A DNA stretch of 8,570 nucleotides from a virus (IMGVR_UViG_2648501498_000017:1-8570); one strand, 5' to 3'; counted from the first letter of the stretch, positions 1 through 8,298 are shown. The notes: generated by a model from the sequence alone, not told the origin. Translations and numbers: made by a program.

Positions 1-383
1 ATTGTAGTTATTTTATGCATATCAATTAATCCTCGACGTAATACCTCCAGCAATTTATCTTCTATATCATTAAGATCATTTACAACATCCTGAGCAGCCG
101 AACTTAATTTATTAGCCTCCAAAAACATAGACTCTGAAATATAATAGGACATAACTTCGCAAAAAACATCGTGTCCCATTTTCTTTAATTTTCTTTTTAA
201 AACGGGATCATTAACTTCAATACAGAAATTTTGCCCATAAGAGCTTTTAAAACTCTGCTTTAGCTGTGTCCTAATATCATTAACACTCGTTCTTCTTTCC
301 GAAACCTCTTTTTTTAAAATTGCCTCAGCCATAGTTGAAACAACTCTAGAAGTTCCTGCCAGGGTCTTCAACCCATAATCCAT
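1..383 (-). CDS. Hypothetical protein, N-terminal part only (at least 127 aa; runs off the left edge of the window). AT-rich accessory gene of unknown function.
   Basis: Seen in sequence: hand translation of the minus strand gives an uninterrupted frame from ATG at 381-383 (MDYGLKTLAGTSRVVSTMAEAILKKEV...) to position 1 with no stop. It is absent from the ORF track, presumably because no stop codon lies in the window. Composition is markedly more AT-rich than the phage core genes. No family recognised. In-frame GTG (411-413) is an alternative start. Confidence 0.4.
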   Translation of the reverse strand, partial: MDYGLKTLAGTSRVVSTMAEAILKKEVSERRTSVNDIRTQLKQSFKSSYGQNFCIEVNDPVLKRKLKKMGHDVFCEVMSYYISESMFLEANKLSSAAQDVVNDLNDIEDKLLEVLRRGLIDMHKITT

Positions 384-545
384 ATCAACCTGATGATCAT
401 CGCTCTTGATCACAACATCAAAATTAATGTTCAATTTTGCAACCTTTTGTTAACTTTTATTATCCGCATCTAATTTTTATCATTAATAATGGATGACTTT
501 CAACAGATTAGCTCAAATTAGAGGGATTTCGCGCGCTCGTATCCC

Positions 546-564
546 CGCCACGCCTGCCCGCTTT
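546..564 (-). other. cos-like cohesive-end site of a P2/186-family phage (candidate)
   Basis: Seen in sequence: the minus strand reads GGCGTGGCGGGGATACGAG. From memory, 186 cos is GGCGTGGCGGGGAAAGCAT and P2 cos is GGCGAGGCGGGGAAAGCAC; the first 13 nt match my recollection of 186, the last 6 diverge. Position (beyond gene A and the tum module) and strand are as expected for a 186-like genome in this orientation. Not verified against a database. Confidence 0.4.
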
Positions 565-595
565 ATGTAGTGGTTTTCATGCACTTGCATGACAT

Positions 596-623
596 AAACA
601 AAAGCCCGCCATTCCTGGCGGGC
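596..623 (-). terminator. Rho-independent terminator-like hairpin, minus-strand sense
   Basis: Seen in sequence: GC stem GCCCGCC (604-610), loop ATTCCT, GGCGGGC (617-623). On the minus strand the stem is followed by TTTTGTTT (complement of 596-603). There is no U-tract on the plus strand. Confidence 0.45.
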
Positions 624-864
624 CTCAACTAAAACGATCCTCAAACGATCATGCGAATTCATGCGGCATAGACATGCATTGTTGCTTTATCGATCTTTTC
701 TTACTTCAAGTGAGTCCTTATGGCCTCCTGTCCACCTTGCGCTGCGCGTTCCCCCTGCCTCCCTTTGTCATAACTTAGATTTAATCATCATAAATCAAGA
801 GGTACTACACAAAGTACCAACTCACAACACTCAACAAACAGCCAATAATGAGCATAATACTAAC

Positions 865-894
865 TTGACTACTCCATAAAAAAATACGTAAACT
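865..894 (+). promoter_or_regulatory. Candidate sigma70 promoter for the 177-aa gene
   Basis: Seen in sequence: TTGACT (865-870), 18-nt spacer, TAAACT (889-894), about 45 nt upstream of the ATG at 941. Hexamers are approximate. Confidence 0.25.
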
Positions 895-940
895 ACATTC
901 ATCAACAGTATTTCTCTAAAAAAGACGGGGTCACAATTCA

Positions 941-1474
941 ATGGCTACTACCAACTGTATTACTGTACTTACTGCTCGTGGTTTAACAGAGATTTTGAAC
1001 ACAGGGGGAAGCCAAGCATGGAGACTTGACGCCAGCCATGCAGCTAAGCACGAATATTTAGTTTGTGTACAAAATTCGAGAAAGGACTGGGGATCACAAG
1101 AAGCAAAACATCATCATGCTTTTATGATCGGTCGAATCTCGGGAGTAAGCAGGGCTCCAGAAAACCCTAAACGCTGGATCATAAACATCAATTCTTATGC
1201 TGAAATTGACATCCCAGGACAATGGGATGGCAATCGGAATCCCGTTTCTTATCGCAACCTCAAAGACATTGGCATTGAGGCTGACAAGTTGGAATTTAAA
1301 GCTCTTCCCAAATTAACCCCGACTAATTCGATTGTCGATCAAGCGGGTGATGAGTACGAAGAAGAAGAAGAAGAAAATGTAGTTAAGCCGTTAACACTTC
1401 AGGAGGCAAAAGCAGGGCTAGCCCTATACTTTGGTGTTAATGAAGAAAATATTCAAATAACTATACAAGGTTAA
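941..1474 (+). CDS. Hypothetical protein, 177 aa, unknown function. Candidate accessory/cargo gene in the P2-family hotspot between gene A and cos.
   Basis: Seen in sequence: ATG-initiated ORF, transcribed opposite to the flanking phage operons, AT-rich. Contains an acidic run DEYEEEEEEN encoded by a (GAA)6 repeat. No family recognised from the sequence. SD is weak (GGGG about 13 nt upstream). Confidence 0.6.
   Translation: MATTNCITVLTARGLTEILNTGGSQAWRLDASHAAKHEYLVCVQNSRKDWGSQEAKHHHAFMIGRISGVSRAPENPKRWIININSYAEIDIPGQWDGNRNPVSYRNLKDIGIEADKLEFKALPKLTPTNSIVDQAGDEYEEEEEENVVKPLTLQEAKAGLALYFGVNEENIQITIQG
1358..1375 (+). repeat. (GAA)6 trinucleotide repeat inside the 177-aa CDS, encoding a polyglutamate run
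   Basis: Seen in sequence: gaagaagaagaagaagaa at 1358-1375, in frame. Confidence 0.9.
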
Positions 1475-2326: not shown

Positions 2327-4741
2327 TTAATACAGGTTCCGCCACTGATCATCTTCCTGCAAACGCTGGTTCCGATAGAAGATACGCAGGCCTGCTCCTG
2401 ACGGAATACTGCCTCCGCGAAGGAGTAAATCGACCTCTTTCTCGCTGCCATCAAATCCTCTGGACTTCAGCTCATACACGAGCTGCAGTCGCTGATGGTC
2501 TGTAATTCGCTGTTTGTAGTCTTTACGCCGTTTCGGTTTCACCAGGCGTAACCTTGCTGCCAGTTCCCGGCGCTCTTTTTTGCTCATACTGTGCAGGTAA
2601 TCGTGCAACTCCTTGTCATCCATGCTGGTAATGTCCGTTCTGGAGTCCCCATCAGCTGATTTATCTTTCTCCTGTTGGTTCAAATTTTCAGCAAGGGGAC
2701 AGTTATTGCCACGAGTCCAAGGGGCGCAAGCGCCCTGGTCGGCAGCCGCCTCCTGAACGTCAACGGCCTTACGAACCATTTTCCACTTCACCGCATGAGT
2801 GCAGATCTTGCCCTCTGCAATGGGTGACCAGATGCCATAAATACGAATACCGTGATCGCCATAAGCGGTTGGCTCTTCGTTGATTTCATAAGCGGTTCTG
2901 ATGAGGTGATATTTACGGGGAACCAGTACGCCACCCTGCTTCATGATATAGGTGGCAAAACAACCAGCATCAGCAGCAGCCAGAATGGCATCAAGGCGCG
3001 GGTTATCCAGTACCGGCGCACCTGCTTTTTTGTCACCCTGTTGCCTTGCCGCCTGACCAGCCAGCAATCGCAGTTCACGGTAAGCCTGACGCCCCGGAAT
3101 GCCAAAGAAGCGGAATTGCTGAACACGATGCAGAGACGCCCAGGCATTAACGTATTCAGCGTTATCACGCAGGGATTTACCCGTTTCCTTGCTGATCTCC
3201 CCAGCCAGACCACGCCCGTCAATGTTCTTACTGATGTATTTCGCGATATAGCTTGTTGGCGTACCTTTGCGCGGGTTTATCAGCTCAGACTTAAAGCGTG
3301 GTCCCGTGTTATTGCCCAGCTCCTCGCGGTCTTCACGGATGGCAAACTTACGCAGTAATGCAGTGATGGCGCGGCGGTCTTTTTTACGCATGAAACACAT
3401 GAGATGCCAGTGCACAGTACCGTCATGATGCGGCTCAGCTACCCGCACGCCATACCAGCGCAACTCGGCTTTATGCATAGCCTTACGAAATGCAGCAAAC
3501 ATGCCGACCAGATAATCGCTACTTTGTCTTACCGTCGCGTTTGTCCAGGTCGGGTTTGGTCTGCCGTTATTGAGCGTGGAATGGAAACGCGACGGACAGG
3601 TGATAGTGTAGAAAACGGCACAGTCACTGCGCATTTCCGCGATAAGCTCCAGACCTTTAACACAGGCCATCATCTCATTGCGGCGATGCGCCGGGTTGCT
3701 GCTGCTGGCGTTTACCACATCTTCCATATCCAGCGTGTCGCCGTCTTCGTTCACCAGTTCATGAGAACGAAAAAACTCCAGCGACTTACGGCGCTGCTCA
3801 CGTTTATGCATCACGGCTTCATAGCTGACATAGGGGGATGCTTTTTTGCTGACCAGGCAGACAGCACGCAACTGCTCTTCCCGCCATTCGCAACGCATCT
3901 TCCATAATTTCCGATACCACCAGTCGGCACACAACATACGCGCCAGCGAACCCGGGATGAGTTCATAGGGCACTGGTTTGCGGCGGTTTCTTTTCCGACG
4001 AAGTTTCTCAAACGCAGGCGGGATAACATCCAGACGCAGGGTTTCCGCTGCCACCTTTTCCCATGTCTTGCGGATTTCTTCTGGCTTAACGTCATCGGTG
4101 GCATACAAATCACCACAAGCGTCCTCAAGACACATGCTCATATGCGCTGCTACCAGGGTGGACAGGCGTTTCACCTGATCCTGGCTCATTTCAGGCAGGA
4201 TCAGCAGACCCTCCAGCCCTTGATGGCTTGCCATAAAACGGAAAGAAACAGATAGCTGACTGTCACGTACACAATCCAGTCGCTCCAGACATGGCTTAAT
4301 CGTCTCACGCAAATAGCGGGAATAAGCCTTTGGCCTGCCCAGGCTGCTGAAGTATTCAATACGTTGCATCAGCGGCTTGCTGATATGGGAAGGCTGGGCG
4401 TTTACGTCCGCCAGAATGACCATGTCCGGATTAAAACGCTGCTGCTCATGCGCCAGCTTTGCCCGGCTAATGAGCTTATCCTGCTCCATTTCGCGCTGGA
4501 CAGGATCACGGGATTCATTAAAGAAATAACGCTCCCAGACCTGCTCACTCAGTGCCTCGCGGCGCAGTTGTTCCTGCTCGTTATCGGCAGCGTACAGAGT
4601 GATCAGGTTTGAAAGTGCAGACTCCGGCGCAACTTCCGCCGGGTCCAGATAAGGGTTAATGGCCTTTTTCGAGCCGTTCCATGAAAATGCTGCGGCGGCC
4701 TCGTTAAAGCCGCTGCAATTGTTCATATCGTCATGACTCAT
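2327..4741 (-). CDS. A: Replication initiation endonuclease gpA (P2/186 gene A family; rolling-circle HUH nickase), 804 aa
   Basis: Seen in sequence: HUH-type motif TVHWHLMCF (HWH codons at 3404-3412) and paired catalytic tyrosines [10 protein letters not shown] (3236-3250), resembling the phiX174/P2 A-protein YxxKY active site. Size matches P2 gpA (about 760 aa). The ATG at 4739-4741 overlaps the dam stop as ATGA. The GTG-initiated start at 4747 in the ORF track is rejected. Confidence 0.9.
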
Positions 4742-5595
4742 ACACACACTCTGTACACGGCAGAACTATCCACGCCACGCGAAGGATCAAATCCCAACCA
4801 GCAGCTCGGCCCGGAAACAGCAATGATTTCTGTTGCAGATTTACCCTCGCCAGCTGACACGCCGATGCTGCGTTTTGCCTTGATATAGTGGTGAGTAAAA
4901 TTGCGATACAGCGAACGAATCAGGGATGTGTCATTGTTAGAAACAATGACCGGATGTCCTTCTGATGACCGATGTTCAAGAATGGATGCCAGGTGATACT
5001 GGTCATCTTCAGTGAAACCATCAGTGTGATAGCCGGAAAACGTACCGTCATACGGCGGATCGCAATACACCACATCCCCCACCTGCAGCATCGCCAGCGT
5101 TTCATCAAAGCTCGCGCAGATAAACGTTGCCCGCTGGGCTTTCTCTGCAAATGCGCGAATTTCTTTTTCAGGGAAATACGGATTTTTATAATTACCGTAG
5201 GGAATGTTGAAATACCCGCTCTTGTTATAGCGACATAAACCACGGTAACCGTGACGATTGAGATATAGGAAATATATCGCCTTCATGAAATCAGTAATTT
5301 CAGTTGAGTAATTAAACTCCTGTCTTATGTTGTAATAAGCCAGCTCACTGTTTGCTTCCTCAAATAAAACTTTGGCACGAGATATAAACGCTTCGCAATC
5401 AGCGGCAATCTTTTTATAGAGGTTGATTAAATCAGGATTAATATCCGCAACCAGATAGCTGGGGTAATCCGTCGCCATCATCACAGCACAAGAACCCGCG
5501 AAAGGTTCAACCAGTCGCGGGCCAGCAGGAAGGTATTTTTTCAGTTCGGACATAATGGCGGTTTTATTACCCGCCCATTTCAGGATGGTGCTCAT
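4738..5595 (-). CDS. dam: DNA adenine methyltransferase (Dam/D12 class, N6-adenine), 285 aa
   Basis: Seen in sequence: N-terminal [11 protein letters not shown]...EPFAGSCAV (AdoMet-binding motif) and the catalytic DPPY in [13 protein letters not shown] at 5593-5595 with GGAGG upstream, overlapping the upstream stop as ATGA. The longer version in the ORF track (start 5655) is rejected. Confidence 0.9.
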
Positions 5596-5819
5596 ACAGC
5601 ACCTCCGTTGTAATGTTTGCCTTTCAGCTCTGCGATTTCCTGGCAGGTAATGCAAAGCTGCACTCCAGGAATGGCACGGCGGCGTGCTGGCGGAATTGGC
5701 GCTTCACACTCAACGCAAAGCACGCGGGACACGCCCGGCGTTTTGGCACGAGCAGCACGGATATGGCGTTGGCGTTCTTCTTCAACGCGCTGCTGTACGA
5801 GATCCATTGCATCAGCCAT
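5592..5819 (-). CDS. TraR/DksA-family C4 zinc-finger protein (75 aa)
   Basis: Seen in sequence: CVECEAPIPPARRRAIPGVQLCITCQE is a CxxC-N17-CxxC zinc finger typical of TraR/DksA proteins common in P2-like phages. The ATG overlaps the upstream stop (TGATG). Confidence 0.75.
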   Translation of the reverse strand: MADAMDLVQQRVEEERQRHIRAARAKTPGVSRVLCVECEAPIPPARRRAIPGVQLCITCQEIAELKGKHYNGGAV

Positions 5820-6052
5820 CAGTGGATCTCCTGCGCTTCGTTCTGGATTGCTTCAGCAGTCACACGCAGCAGTTCTGCCGCTTCGACGTGGTTTAGCTGG
5901 CGGGAGGTGATATGACACGCCAGGCTATCGAGGCGAGCAGCCATTGCTTCAGCCCTTGCCCGGCGTTCTTCCAGACGAGCCTCTGTCAGTAAAAGATTAA
6001 GACCTGCATCATCCGGTCCGGTTTTGGTCGTGAGGGTTTCAATATTACGCAT
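5819..6052 (-). CDS. Hypothetical early-operon protein (77 aa)
   Basis: Seen in sequence: ATG at 6050-6052 with SD CAGGAGAA, translationally coupled to the downstream TraR-like gene. Function unknown. The TTG start at 6058 in the ORF track is rejected. Confidence 0.55.
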   Translation of the reverse strand: MRNIETLTTKTGPDDAGLNLLLTEARLEERRARAEAMAARLDSLACHITSRQLNHVEAAELLRVTAEAIQNEAQEIH

Positions 6053-6119
6053 AAGCAATTCTCCTGAATTTAGATAAAGGGATGCCCGGCGGGTTTACGC
6101 CATTAATTTCATTAGTTGG

Positions 6120-6461
6120 TTAATTCGGCATGGTTAGCCGTCTGGGAAATAAGCTCACCACTGCACGAAAATGATTCATTGCTTTAATCAACTCCCGCTT
6201 TTCGTCAGTGGTCAGCTCATTAATGCTGATGCTATGACGTTCAGCTGGAATTTTTGCCATAAAGAATATGGCAGCCAGTGCCCGTTTATTTTGTTCATTA
6301 TTGATATCCCGTGGATCACGCATATCTTTAATAAACCGCTCAAGCTCTGACTCAATATTCAAACCAAAAACTTTCGCCCTTAACTCCGCAATATGATTAA
6401 GTCCATTCAGGCGTTCACCGGGTCTTAATGGAACAGTCGCCGCAGCGCCTTCAATAGCCAT
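6120..6461 (-). CDS. Hypothetical early-operon protein (113 aa); sits where 186 has dhr, but this is synteny only
   Basis: Seen in sequence: ATG at 6459-6461 preceded by GGGGGAA. Overlaps the end of the upstream 66-aa gene by 37 nt in another frame. Confidence 0.5.
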   Translation of the reverse strand: MAIEGAAATVPLRPGERLNGLNHIAELRAKVFGLNIESELERFIKDMRDPRDINNEQNKRALAAIFFMAKIPAERHSISINELTTDEKRELIKAMNHFRAVVSLFPRRLTMPN

Positions 6462-6625
6462 TTGTTCCCCCGTTTTTTCGTAGATAGTTCTGCCAGCAAT
6501 TCATCTTGTGAACGGCACGGATGCCAGCGTTTTCCATCCTCACCCATGATCCAGCCGTGACCGTAGTGCATTGCCGGGCTTTGCTTTACCAGCAGCGATG
6601 CAAATGATGGTTCTTTCGTCAGCAT
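6425..6625 (-). CDS. Small early protein (66 aa); sits where 186 has fil, but this is synteny only
   Basis: Seen in sequence: ATG at 6623-6625 with SD GAGGTG, 8 nt after the CII stop. The longer version in the ORF track (start 6655) would overlap CII and is rejected. Confidence 0.45.
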   Translation of the reverse strand: MLTKEPSFASLLVKQSPAMHYGHGWIMGEDGKRWHPCRSQDELLAELSTKKRGNKWLLKALRRLFH

Positions 6626-6632
6626 AAGCACC

Positions 6633-7142
6633 TCACAGCAAACCGAATGAAGCACCGAGGCCAGTCACGGTATCAACTGCACTCGCCATCGCAGGGTTAG
6701 CCTGTAAACGGGCCTGCAATGAAACAGCAGCCAACGCCATCAGTCGTGTTACAGAGTTAATGCTGCTGATAGCATCACGACGACCTGCACTGGTTTTTAC
6801 ATCGCCAGATACCGCACCTGCAGCAACACGCCCGATCTCTGCGGTTGCACTCATGACGTAATGTGGCAGTTTCTCTTTTGCCACCTCATTAATCGGTACG
6901 CATGGCAGGCAGTGAATCTGAGCCAGAAAACCATCTACCAGCGTTGAATCTTCAGTCAGATCGGTAAGCAGCCAGATTTCTGGTGCGGTTAATAAATGAG
7001 GTTGCGCTGGGTTCAACTTGTTCCGCAGAATCTGCACATTCATGCCAGCACGTTCTGCCAGTTGCACCAGGTTGTGGCGCAATGCGAATGCACGACAGGC
7101 TTCATCAAAATGTGGATGTTTGGAAACTTGGTAATCAAACAT
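6633..7142 (-). CDS. cII: 186 CII-like transcriptional activator (169 aa, HTH)
   Basis: Seen in sequence: [48 protein letters not shown]... matches my recollection of 186 CII (169 aa, N-terminal HTH) in sequence character, length and position after apl. ATG at 7140-7142; the TTG start at 7148 in the track is rejected. Identity is from recall, not a search. Confidence 0.75.
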
Positions 7143-7174
7143 GGTCAATGCCTCTGATGTATTTCAGAATCGAA

Positions 7175-7396
7175 CTAATTAAGGTTTAGATTGCATTCTG
7201 AAAGCGCATCAACGGTCATTGCTGCTATGTTGATCATCACTTTTTCGCGTTTTTTATCTTTGCGCAGACGGTGACGGATAAGGCGTCCATCAGCCAACAT
7301 GTCATTGATGGTATCGATGGATAGCCCTGTCAGCTCGCTATAGCGTTCAATAGTCACATGAGGGGTGGTAAGAGTGATTGAAATGTTAGGTCTCAT
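7175..7396 (-). CDS. Apl/Cox-like small DNA-binding protein (excisionase/repressor of the lysogenic promoter), 73 aa
   Basis: Seen in sequence: first gene of the minus-strand operon, divergent from cI, with an HTH-like segment ([23 protein letters not shown]) and SD GAGGAA. Function inferred from position and size (186 Apl 87 aa, P2 Cox 91 aa). Confidence 0.6.
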
Positions 7397-7468
7397 GATG
7401 CAACATTCCTCGTTTAATGATGATTAATCAGGACGAATACGGATCGTTTGTATTTTGTGAACACCATA

Positions 7469-7497
7469 AACATACGATCGCACAGTGAAATCGTCAA
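7469..7497 (-). promoter_or_regulatory. pR-like lytic promoter for the apl-cII...A operon
   Basis: Seen in sequence: on the minus strand, TTGACG (complement of 7492-7497), 17-nt spacer, TATGTT (complement of 7469-7474). It lies next to the cI start, as in the 186 face-to-face switch. A GATC (7476-7479) sits in the spacer. GTGAAC (7457-7462) and GTTCAC (7505-7510) flank it as an inverted repeat. Confidence 0.45.
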
Positions 7498-7521
7498 GAT
7501 AAAAGTTCACTTGGAGTGACC

Positions 7522-8091
7522 ATGAATTTGGAGAAAGGCGGACGAGGCGCTATAGAGCGCATGGTAGAAGCTTATGGATTCAAGACTCGACAGGCGTTGT
7601 GCGATCATTTAGGAATCTCTAAAAGTACACTCGCCACACGCTACATGCGTGACTCATTCCCAGCAGAATGGGTAATCCAGTGCGCCCTTGAAACAGGCAC
7701 CTCGCTTAATTGGCTCACAACCGGGCATGGTTCAAAGCAAACTTCAGGTAATACAAATACTATGGAAGTTGCTAAATATGTATTATCTGATGGGGCCTTG
7801 TGTGAAGACGGTTTTTATATTTTCGATAGAGAATTTCTACCGTCGGCATTCAAGAATCTTTTTGTAATCACAGATAATAATTCTGAATTTATTTGTGATA
7901 AGGAATTTGATGATATACGTGATGGTAAATGGGTAATAAGTATTGATGGCGAAATAACGATCCGTGACATTACTCGTTTACCCGGTGGAAGAATCTTCGT
8001 CGAGGGTGGAAACAGAGCCTTCGAGTGCAAGATAGAAGATGTTGAAATAATTGGGAAAATTATAAGTTTAACAATTAAGTACGTTAGGTAA
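7522..8091 (+). CDS. cI: 186-type CI immunity repressor (189 aa)
   Basis: Seen in sequence: N-terminal HTH region (GFKTRQALCDHLGISKSTLATRYMRDSFPAEWVIQCALETGTSLNWL) and a roughly 190-aa length typical of the 186 CI family (186 CI is 192 aa; P2 C is only 99 aa). Divergent from the apl operon. ATG at 7522 with GGAG 5 nt upstream; the GTG start at 7516 in the track is rejected. Confidence 0.85.
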   Translation: MNLEKGGRGAIERMVEAYGFKTRQALCDHLGISKSTLATRYMRDSFPAEWVIQCALETGTSLNWLTTGHGSKQTSGNTNTMEVAKYVLSDGALCEDGFYIFDREFLPSAFKNLFVITDNNSEFICDKEFDDIRDGKWVISIDGEITIRDITRLPGGRIFVEGGNRAFECKIEDVEIIGKIISLTIKYVR

Positions 8092-8106: not shown

Positions 8107-8298
8107 ATGCTTGGTAAGGTATTTTTTGTGGTTTTATCATGCTCTTTGTTATTAAACCCACTAACTACCTATGCTAAAAATTATCCTTGTTCTGGGAAAA
8201 AGGGAGGTGTCTCTCACTGTACCTCCGATGGAAAGTTCGTTTGCAATGATGGAACTATTAGTAAATCAAAAAAAATCTGTACTAAAAACTCGCGATAA
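8107..8298 (+). CDS. Small predicted secreted protein with four cysteines (63 aa); moron-like gene after cI
   Basis: Seen in sequence: strong SD (GGGAGGAAACT) 15 nt after the cI stop. Hydrophobic N-terminal signal-peptide-like segment ([19 protein letters not shown]) followed by a 40-aa mature part with Cys at four spaced positions. Occupies the place where the integrase would be expected. Confidence 0.5.

Follow-up and report, generated by a model that had tools for sequence, protein, structure and literature searches.

The lactococcal abortive-infection proteins AbiC, with two transmembrane (TM) helices, and AbiP, which has one TM helix and binds nucleic acids, are grouped as AbiC/P in a 2026 review, where both are described as single-gene systems with an extramembrane helical domain and an unknown mechanism (PMC13064643). 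How these AbiC/P proteins work and what triggers them has resisted explanation since the 1990s. In P2-like phages, the interval between gpA and gpQ is published as a cos-proximal defence hotspot with experimental support (PMC9122126, PMC13586616). The hotspot also holds exclusion genes, e.g., old and tin of P2 (PMC9122126). Here, we describe a two-gene cassette, A-B, which occupies this known hotspot and is already catalogued and computationally flagged. New are the operon structure, the predicted OB-like DUF7946/DUF7947 protein encoded by gene A, its obligate AbiC/P-like partner with two TM segments encoded by gene B, and the spread of the pair beyond P2-like phages.

The earlier listings are brief. 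The locus table of Rousset et al. (2022) enters WP_113440963 and WP_001405613 as "hypothetical + hypothetical," and A-B is absent from the systems named or tested in the accessible part of that study (PMC9122126). Table S10 of DefensePredictor (2026) lists WP_001024494.1 as "Predicted novel defense gene" (PMC13092281). This protein is gene A of strain 82.0311, and its log-odds average 6.97 (range 4.69-8.49), the strict cutoff being 4. None of the accessions that were searched is among the cloned units tabulated in the same work (tables S6 and S7; PMC13092281). Our literature search found no experimental test of the A-B pair, and main texts returned nothing for DUF7946/DUF7947, putAbiC/PF16872 or the WP accessions.

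According to its ORF map, the window, i.e., the whole stretch of 8,570 nt that was analysed, covers the early and replication genes of a temperate phage of the P2/186 type, reversed with respect to the usual P2 map (Table 1). No RNA family was found in the window by an Rfam scan. The gene A cassette resembles other hotspot cargo in its location between gpA and the portal gene Q, adjoining cos, in its AT-richness and in its variability between otherwise similar prophages. It differs in position from the classical old and tin of P2, which are found on the gpA side of cos and not, like this cassette, on the portal side.

Table 1. Features of the window, numbered from its first base.
Feature	Position	Strand	Basis or remark
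Gene A, 5' part (codons 1-144 of 271)	1-434	-	Open frame; full-length copies in L001 and L019
AT-rich leader	435-529	-	AAGG at 446-443; weak -10-like GATAAT at 464-459
cos core: 19-nt cohesive end GGCGTGGCGGGGATACGAG (554-536) and conserved CGCGCG (535-530)	530-554	-	Motif search, alignment
Conserved cos-flanking backbone block, gpA side of cos	530-678		DNA comparison
Terminator-like GC-rich hairpin, 11 pairs, with minus-strand T-run, upstream of cos	601-626	-	Terminator scan
Lone 177-aa ORF	941-1474	+	ORF map; gpA side of cos
Replication endonuclease gpA, 806 aa	2327-4747	-	ORF map
Dam methylase gene	4738-5655	-	ORF map
CII/B-like gene	6633-7148	-	ORF map
Small ORF in cox position	7175-7396	-	ORF map
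CI-type repressor gene	7516-8091	+	ORF map
63-aa ORF	8107-8298	+	Just 3' of the CI repressor gene

A preliminary description of this DNA had claimed a truncated, AT-rich gene that starts about 160 bp beyond a cos-like motif and reads away from it. All of this stands except the start. The minus-strand frame is open from position 449 to base 1, comprises 149 codons and continues past the window edge. When bases 1-520 were shuffled 20,000 times, a frame as long that reached the edge never arose (mean 19 codons, maximum 113). GC content is 33.4% over 1-434 compared with 49.1% over the backbone at 2327-8091. Comparison of gene A with homologues at ~76% nucleotide identity gives a pN of 0.09 and a pS of 0.82, and comparison with L021 a dN/dS of ~0.04. 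The shuffle test, pN/pS and dN/dS thus identify gene A as a real gene, subject to strong purifying selection. The existence of the cos-like motif is confirmed as well: the minus strand matches GGCGTGGCGGGGATAC without a mismatch at 554-539, where 0.01 chance matches are expected, and the motif lies within the conserved block flanking cos.

The start had been placed at ATG 383. Judged from sequence conservation, the true start is very probably TTG 434-432 instead, and gene A hence begins ~100 nt from the cos 19-mer. Translation from this TTG gives the N-terminus MxxNFDVVIKSGxxxVDMDY, which is kept in 32-43 homologues of 271-275 aa, and the 17 residues that precede the Met of ATG 383 (MxxNFDVVIKSGxxxVD) are conserved among those homologues. 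A stop codon is found five codons 5' of the TTG with no alternative start codon in between, and a Shine-Dalgarno-like AAGG, read directly from the sequence, is located 8 nt 5' of it (Table 1). The PGAP annotation in relatives uses the TTG start. Public records differ, however, giving either a protein of 271 aa (TTG, PGAP) or one of 254 aa (ATG, on 336 contigs). The part of gene A inside the window covers most of an N-terminal alpha/beta domain, and the OB-like C-terminal domain is encoded outside.

The cassette begins almost exactly where the phage backbone ends. The sequence at 554-536 resembles the 186/P2-type cohesive end, and because of this likeness 536-554 is treated as the cos 19-mer. 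The block at 530-678 is present at 89-99% identity in 1271 of 5426 complete E. coli genomes and in 45 phage records (among them those of Fels-2, SopEPhi and P2-like phages of Klebsiella), yet DNA of the gene A cassette occurs in only 3-4 of these 1271 genomes. The leader is conserved neither between alleles of the cassette nor in other P2-like prophages, in which similarity ends at ~527-530. An alignment of 15 loci from cos to the start of gene A is conserved through the 19-mer and GCGCGC and then diverges completely, which places the leader in the cassette. As backbone similarity ends ~7 nt past the cos core, the cargo would lie nearly at the end of the packaged linear chromosome. The terminator scan found three candidates where 0.4 are expected. 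The hairpin upstream of cos (Table 1) would stop leftward read-through, so that the cassette would require its own promoter. This promoter is presumed to lie in the leader at 435-529, the minus strand of which gave no hit in a scan for consensus promoters.

The preliminary description further held that the portal gene is the first gene across cos in P2-type genomes and that a different gene in this slot is anomalous. Both statements are true for P2 itself. They do not extend to the P2-like group, in which cargo is common: of four further E. coli prophages sampled with this cos block, three have different cargo in the slot, in the same orientation. L046 harbours genes for a HipA-domain and a HIRAN-domain protein between cos and portal (1203-2854), and the cos-portal slots of L049 (1819-2880) and L048 (994-2867) are occupied by a PIN-domain gene and by three hypothetical genes, respectively. 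All three cargoes read from cos toward the portal. In the fourth prophage (L047), cargo is missing and the portal gene lies ~150 nt from cos. In most P2-like loci with gene A, among them ~20 divergent ones, the cos motif is found 117-154 nt upstream of the gene.

On the gpA side of cos, the window contains the 177-aa ORF, presumably the cargo gene that the preliminary description counted as the first one. Its product has an acidic EEEEEE run and matches phrog_37247 (E 9e-93), and no family match was obtained in Pfam, PADLOC or NCBIfam. The same protein (99%) is encoded in L022 beside a gene A allele that is only 53% identical. L046 shares window positions 530-940 at 99.8% and has a hypothetical CDS of the same size in the position of the 177-aa ORF. 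L001 and L002 carry gene A without this ORF. From these combinations, the two slots that flank cos appear to assort independently.

Full-length copies reveal what follows gene A. In a megablast search of positions 1-940 against the 5426 complete E. coli genomes, 1-529 was found in three genomes at 97-98% and in one at 81% identity. The locus of E. coli PM4-5 (L001) is 98.1% identical to the window over 1-678 and 99.8% over 1-434. Here, gene A (816 bp, 271 aa) is followed after a 1-nt spacer by gene B and then by a convergent portal gene and the genes for terminase ATPase, scaffold and capsid. L019, whose gene A protein is 99% identical, has the same order of gene A, gene B (1-nt spacer), convergent portal and terminase. 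The preliminary description had proposed that gene A is a cargo gene and possibly the first of a multi-gene system, and had suggested looking for portal and terminase genes further left; both loci agree with the proposal and contain these genes. Strain 82.0311 (L002) has a layout like L001 except that IS421 separates gene B from the portal gene. The IS421 transposase gene maps to 6697-7809 of L002, and a DUF2971 gene is present at 9690-10808 on the gpA side of cos.

Linkage of the two genes was assessed by tblastn in a sample of 40 loci, counting a gene A homologue at >=29% identity. Gene B lies directly downstream of gene A on the same strand in all 36 loci with a gene A homologue, and the identities of A and B co-vary across loci (r = 0.95, Spearman 0.70). 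About 28 of the 36 loci are P2-like, with gpA 28-97% identical to that of the window, and a portal gene is found beyond the cassette in L001, L019 and ~25 other loci. The contexts vary nonetheless. In a Providencia prophage A-B flanks cos on its gpA side, in Chromobacterium haemolyticum it adjoins valS with no phage genes nearby, and in Aeromonas it is found near a repressor-like gene (HTH and Peptidase_S24) with no P2-type genes. A search of the phage collection with DNA of 1-529 gave no match, and a search at the protein level gave one distant A-B pair, in Klebsiella phage Kp4865-4, near which no P2-type gpA, portal or terminase was detected. In this phage a convergent 272-aa ORF, DUF2971-like by eye, follows A-B (L011, 6717-7535, minus strand). 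A scan of genome contigs yielded only three loci, A-B also occurs in a metagenome-assembled genome, and public records contain the pair in hundreds of assemblies of E. coli, Salmonella, Klebsiella, Serratia and Yersinia. Strict linkage and varied contexts, together with the solo occurrence of distant relatives described below, define A-B as a coherent, mobile and clade-specific module.

In accordance with the preliminary description, gene A matches no phage core protein. It matches phrog_13337 (E 8e-71), a PHROG of unknown function, scans with PADLOC and NCBIfam gave no match, and the full-length protein, whose frame is intact, is not a portal, terminase or other morphogenetic protein. The allele of the window scores 25.0-26.3 bits for DUF7946 and 13.6 bits for DUF7947, each against a cutoff of 27. 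Sub-threshold matches are found in 12 of 43 homologues for DUF7946 and in 30 of 43 for DUF7947 (best E 6e-5), and the precomputed Pfam annotation assigns PF25678 to one protein (P0001). A gene A profile retrieved 190 relatives from 1.84 billion representative proteins, nearly all of 260-295 aa and without fusions, and distant relatives of this length reach 55-115 bits for DUF7946 and up to 54 bits for DUF7947. Sub-threshold matches and profile search thus suggest that gene A represents a divergent clade of a small DUF7946/DUF7947 family with fixed architecture. By sequence, it shares both homology and architecture with bona fide members, namely the length of ~260-295 aa and the order of the two domains. 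The clade differs from the rest of the family in scoring just under threshold and in having acquired an AbiC-like partner: it is paired with B, whereas distant members can be solo. Four distant contexts comprise two solo genes and two contigs too short to inform, and one distant gene stands alone, without B, among housekeeping genes. Hence, the family is not intrinsically linked to defence.

The AF2 model of gene A is of good quality (pLDDT 87.7, pTM 0.83). Residues 1 to ~180 are modelled as an alpha/beta domain without a significant solved relative. Foldseek matches to a pitrilysin/IDE-like fold were weak and not significant for this domain, and we do not adopt them. The C-terminal barrel of the model matches cold-shock proteins in Foldseek with a probability of ~0.9 and non-significant E-values, and is predicted to be an OB/cold-shock-like beta-barrel. 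OB-like folds bind sugars, metals and proteins too. When the gene A model was compared with the PDB by Foldseek, no structure reached E <= 1e-3, and sequence searches with the family profiles of gene A and gene B returned nothing at E <= 1. Invariant residues of gene A form the clusters SFxSSYGQxF, PLxxMH, TRFNSxTGNGRL and NLHxNN, the third of which is carried by the C-terminal domain. Hydropathy analysis detected no hydrophobic segment in gene A, as expected for a soluble protein.

Gene B (233 aa, 702 bp in L001) matches phrog_8999 and is without family match in Pfam, PADLOC and NCBIfam. Strong hydrophobic segments with hydropathy scores >=2.0 are found at residues 4-22 and 42-60. In the AF2 model (pLDDT 86.9), a helix at 2-23 (TM1) is followed by a second, very long one at 33-105, and the C-terminal domain is helical as well. 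The invariant motif WGQFGDYxGGVxNP covers the stretch before and into TM2. Gene B is accordingly modelled as an inner-membrane protein with an N-terminal two-TM hairpin and a helical domain of ~170 aa predicted to be cytoplasmic. A third hydrophobic helix, FPLVRLIVLALCVYDW, is found within this supposed cytoplasmic domain at residues 185-205 (hydropathy ~1.9; L001 8003-8065, minus strand), and could either be buried in the core of the domain or associate with the membrane.

Gene B is connected to the AbiC-type proteins through intermediates. Starting from gene B, phmmer reaches proteins of PF16872 (putAbiC) with E-values of 4e-9 to 4e-5, and hhalign of gene B with five such proteins, PF16872 being present in four of them, yields a probability of 99.6% and an E-value of 1.7e-24 over 177 columns. 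The aligned span covers residues 7-187 of gene B and extends into the beginning of the PF16872 region. As hmmscan detects PF16872 in none of 36 gene B homologues at E <= 1, the link to AbiC rests on profile-profile homology. The AbiC and AbiP models of PADLOC match neither gene B nor its homologues, and match the bridging putAbiC proteins weakly. One gene B homologue bears the public annotation "Phage abortive infection protein." Based on the profile-profile homology via the bridging proteins, we regard gene B as a short, remote relative of the AbiC/P type, which is not classed as an AbiC/P member because it falls below curated thresholds. Like AbiC, gene B would possess an N-terminal membrane anchor with two TM segments according to hydropathy and AF2, and in common with putAbiC-type proteins it has the WGQFGDYxGG motif and most of the helical part outside the membrane. 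Unlike AbiC/P-type proteins of ~280-350 aa it has only 233 aa, and unlike the single-gene AbiC and AbiP and the solo genes of the related putAbiC type it has gene A as a constant partner. In an unrelated phage (L041-L043, 4001-5047), a solo putAbiC (PF16872) gene is located near terminase genes, which hints that the borders of the packaging module might be a recurrent home of AbiC-type cargo.

We consider it moderately likely that A-B is an anti-phage module which the prophage carries and which acts by abortive infection or by exclusion. The A-B operon, a self-contained unit, lies only a few bases from the cos core of its P2/186-type prophage, toward the portal gene, and would be expressed by the lysogen from a promoter in the leader. 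Gene A might act as a cytoplasmic sensor or regulator that senses infection or holds B in check, and its predicted OB-like barrel may bind nucleic acid or a phage protein. Gene B might be the membrane-anchored effector that brings about abortive infection or exclusion of competing phages. Anti-phage function, the division into sensor and effector, and the membrane and nucleic-acid activities of A and B are what we infer for the pair; the location in the hotspot speaks for an anti-phage function only as guilt by association.

A more specific version, in which A-B is a two-component abortive infection system whose OB/cold-shock-like protein A senses phage nucleic acid or protein and gates an AbiC/AbiP-type effector, is a possibility that we put forward tentatively and with less confidence. 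Such a role of A would be without precedent since AbiC and AbiP act, and the related putAbiC-type genes occur, singly. By analogy, this arrangement would follow the logic of RexAB with unrelated folds. RexA and RexB of phage lambda are a prophage pair of a ~275-aa cytoplasmic and a small inner-membrane protein that mediates the exclusion of other phages. The likeness to A-B is one of function alone. Homology was considered and rejected, as hhalign gives a probability of 0.6% for A with RexA and of 0.3% for B with RexB, and the annotated length of RexB is 144 aa compared with 233 aa for gene B.

Four other explanations have to be weighed against an anti-phage module. A-B might be a toxin-antitoxin (TA) or addiction module with no dedicated anti-phage role, in which B is a membrane toxin and A the upstream antidote. 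The order of a soluble followed by a membrane protein, the 1-nt coupling and the strict linkage fit a type II-like TA architecture, the pair is mobile across contexts, and a distant DUF7946/7947 gene adjoins a ParE toxin gene. However, A and B are much larger than typical TA partners, and the PADLOC, Pfam and NCBIfam scans show no homology to known TA families. We therefore regard a pure addiction module as improbable. As TA-like behaviour and abortive infection are compatible, this explanation is in part a sub-case of the anti-phage module.

Prophage membrane proteins commonly mediate exclusion. A-B might act at the envelope, in superinfection exclusion or lysogenic conversion, by blocking DNA entry or changing a receptor without killing the infected cell. 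The predicted inner-membrane location of B and the conserved loop motif between its TM helices are consistent with such a role, as is the presence of exclusion genes in the hotspot (old and tin in P2; PMC9122126). Intracellular sensing nevertheless fits better with ~170 aa of B and all of A being predicted as cytoplasmic, and the Abi-type proteins with which B shares homology act after DNA entry (PMC13064643). A function confined to the envelope hence seems unlikely, to a degree similar to that of the addiction module.

A benefit to the phage itself is less probable still. In this case, A-B would be an accessory acting on cos or packaging, or interfering with P4-type satellites, and its fixed position ~120 nt from cos, beside portal and terminase, would reflect that activity. 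The spacing is indeed kept across ~20 divergent P2-like loci (117-154 nt), and the solo putAbiC-type gene of an unrelated phage is also near terminase genes. The constant spacing, however, also follows from a common junction directly after cos combined with a short leader, and many P2-like phages lack A-B or have unrelated cargo in the slot. A role in packaging is disfavoured in particular because A-B also occurs in loci without cos, portal or terminase. Lastly, that A-B is non-functional, decaying hitch-hiker DNA whose ORFs have no selected function, as the annotation of both genes as "hypothetical" everywhere might suggest, is effectively excluded by the selection signal (pN 0.09 against pS 0.82; dN/dS ~0.04), with full-length conservation from 29% to 99% identity across genera, invariant motifs and the confident AF2 models of A and B arguing against it as well.

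If the anti-phage module functions in defence, it would add a new architecture to the AbiC/P group, in which a membrane protein has an obligate soluble OB-like partner, and would provide the first function for DUF7946/DUF7947. If, moreover, A gates B as in the two-component version, the pair would offer the first experimental handle on how AbiC/P effectors are triggered. Given its presence in hundreds of Enterobacterales assemblies, A-B could influence which phages are able to infect clinically relevant members of this order. The tight packing of cargo against cos and the apparently independent filling of the two slots are useful for annotating and mining P2-like prophages, although as a genome feature A-B is an ordinary occupant of the hotspot.

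A further cargo slot may exist at the other end of the window. The 63-aa ORF next to the CI repressor gene encodes a protein with five cysteines and a signal-peptide-like N-terminus. Small hypothetical genes are found in this position in L001 and L002, followed by a gene for a P-loop NTPase in L001 and by an integrase gene in L002.
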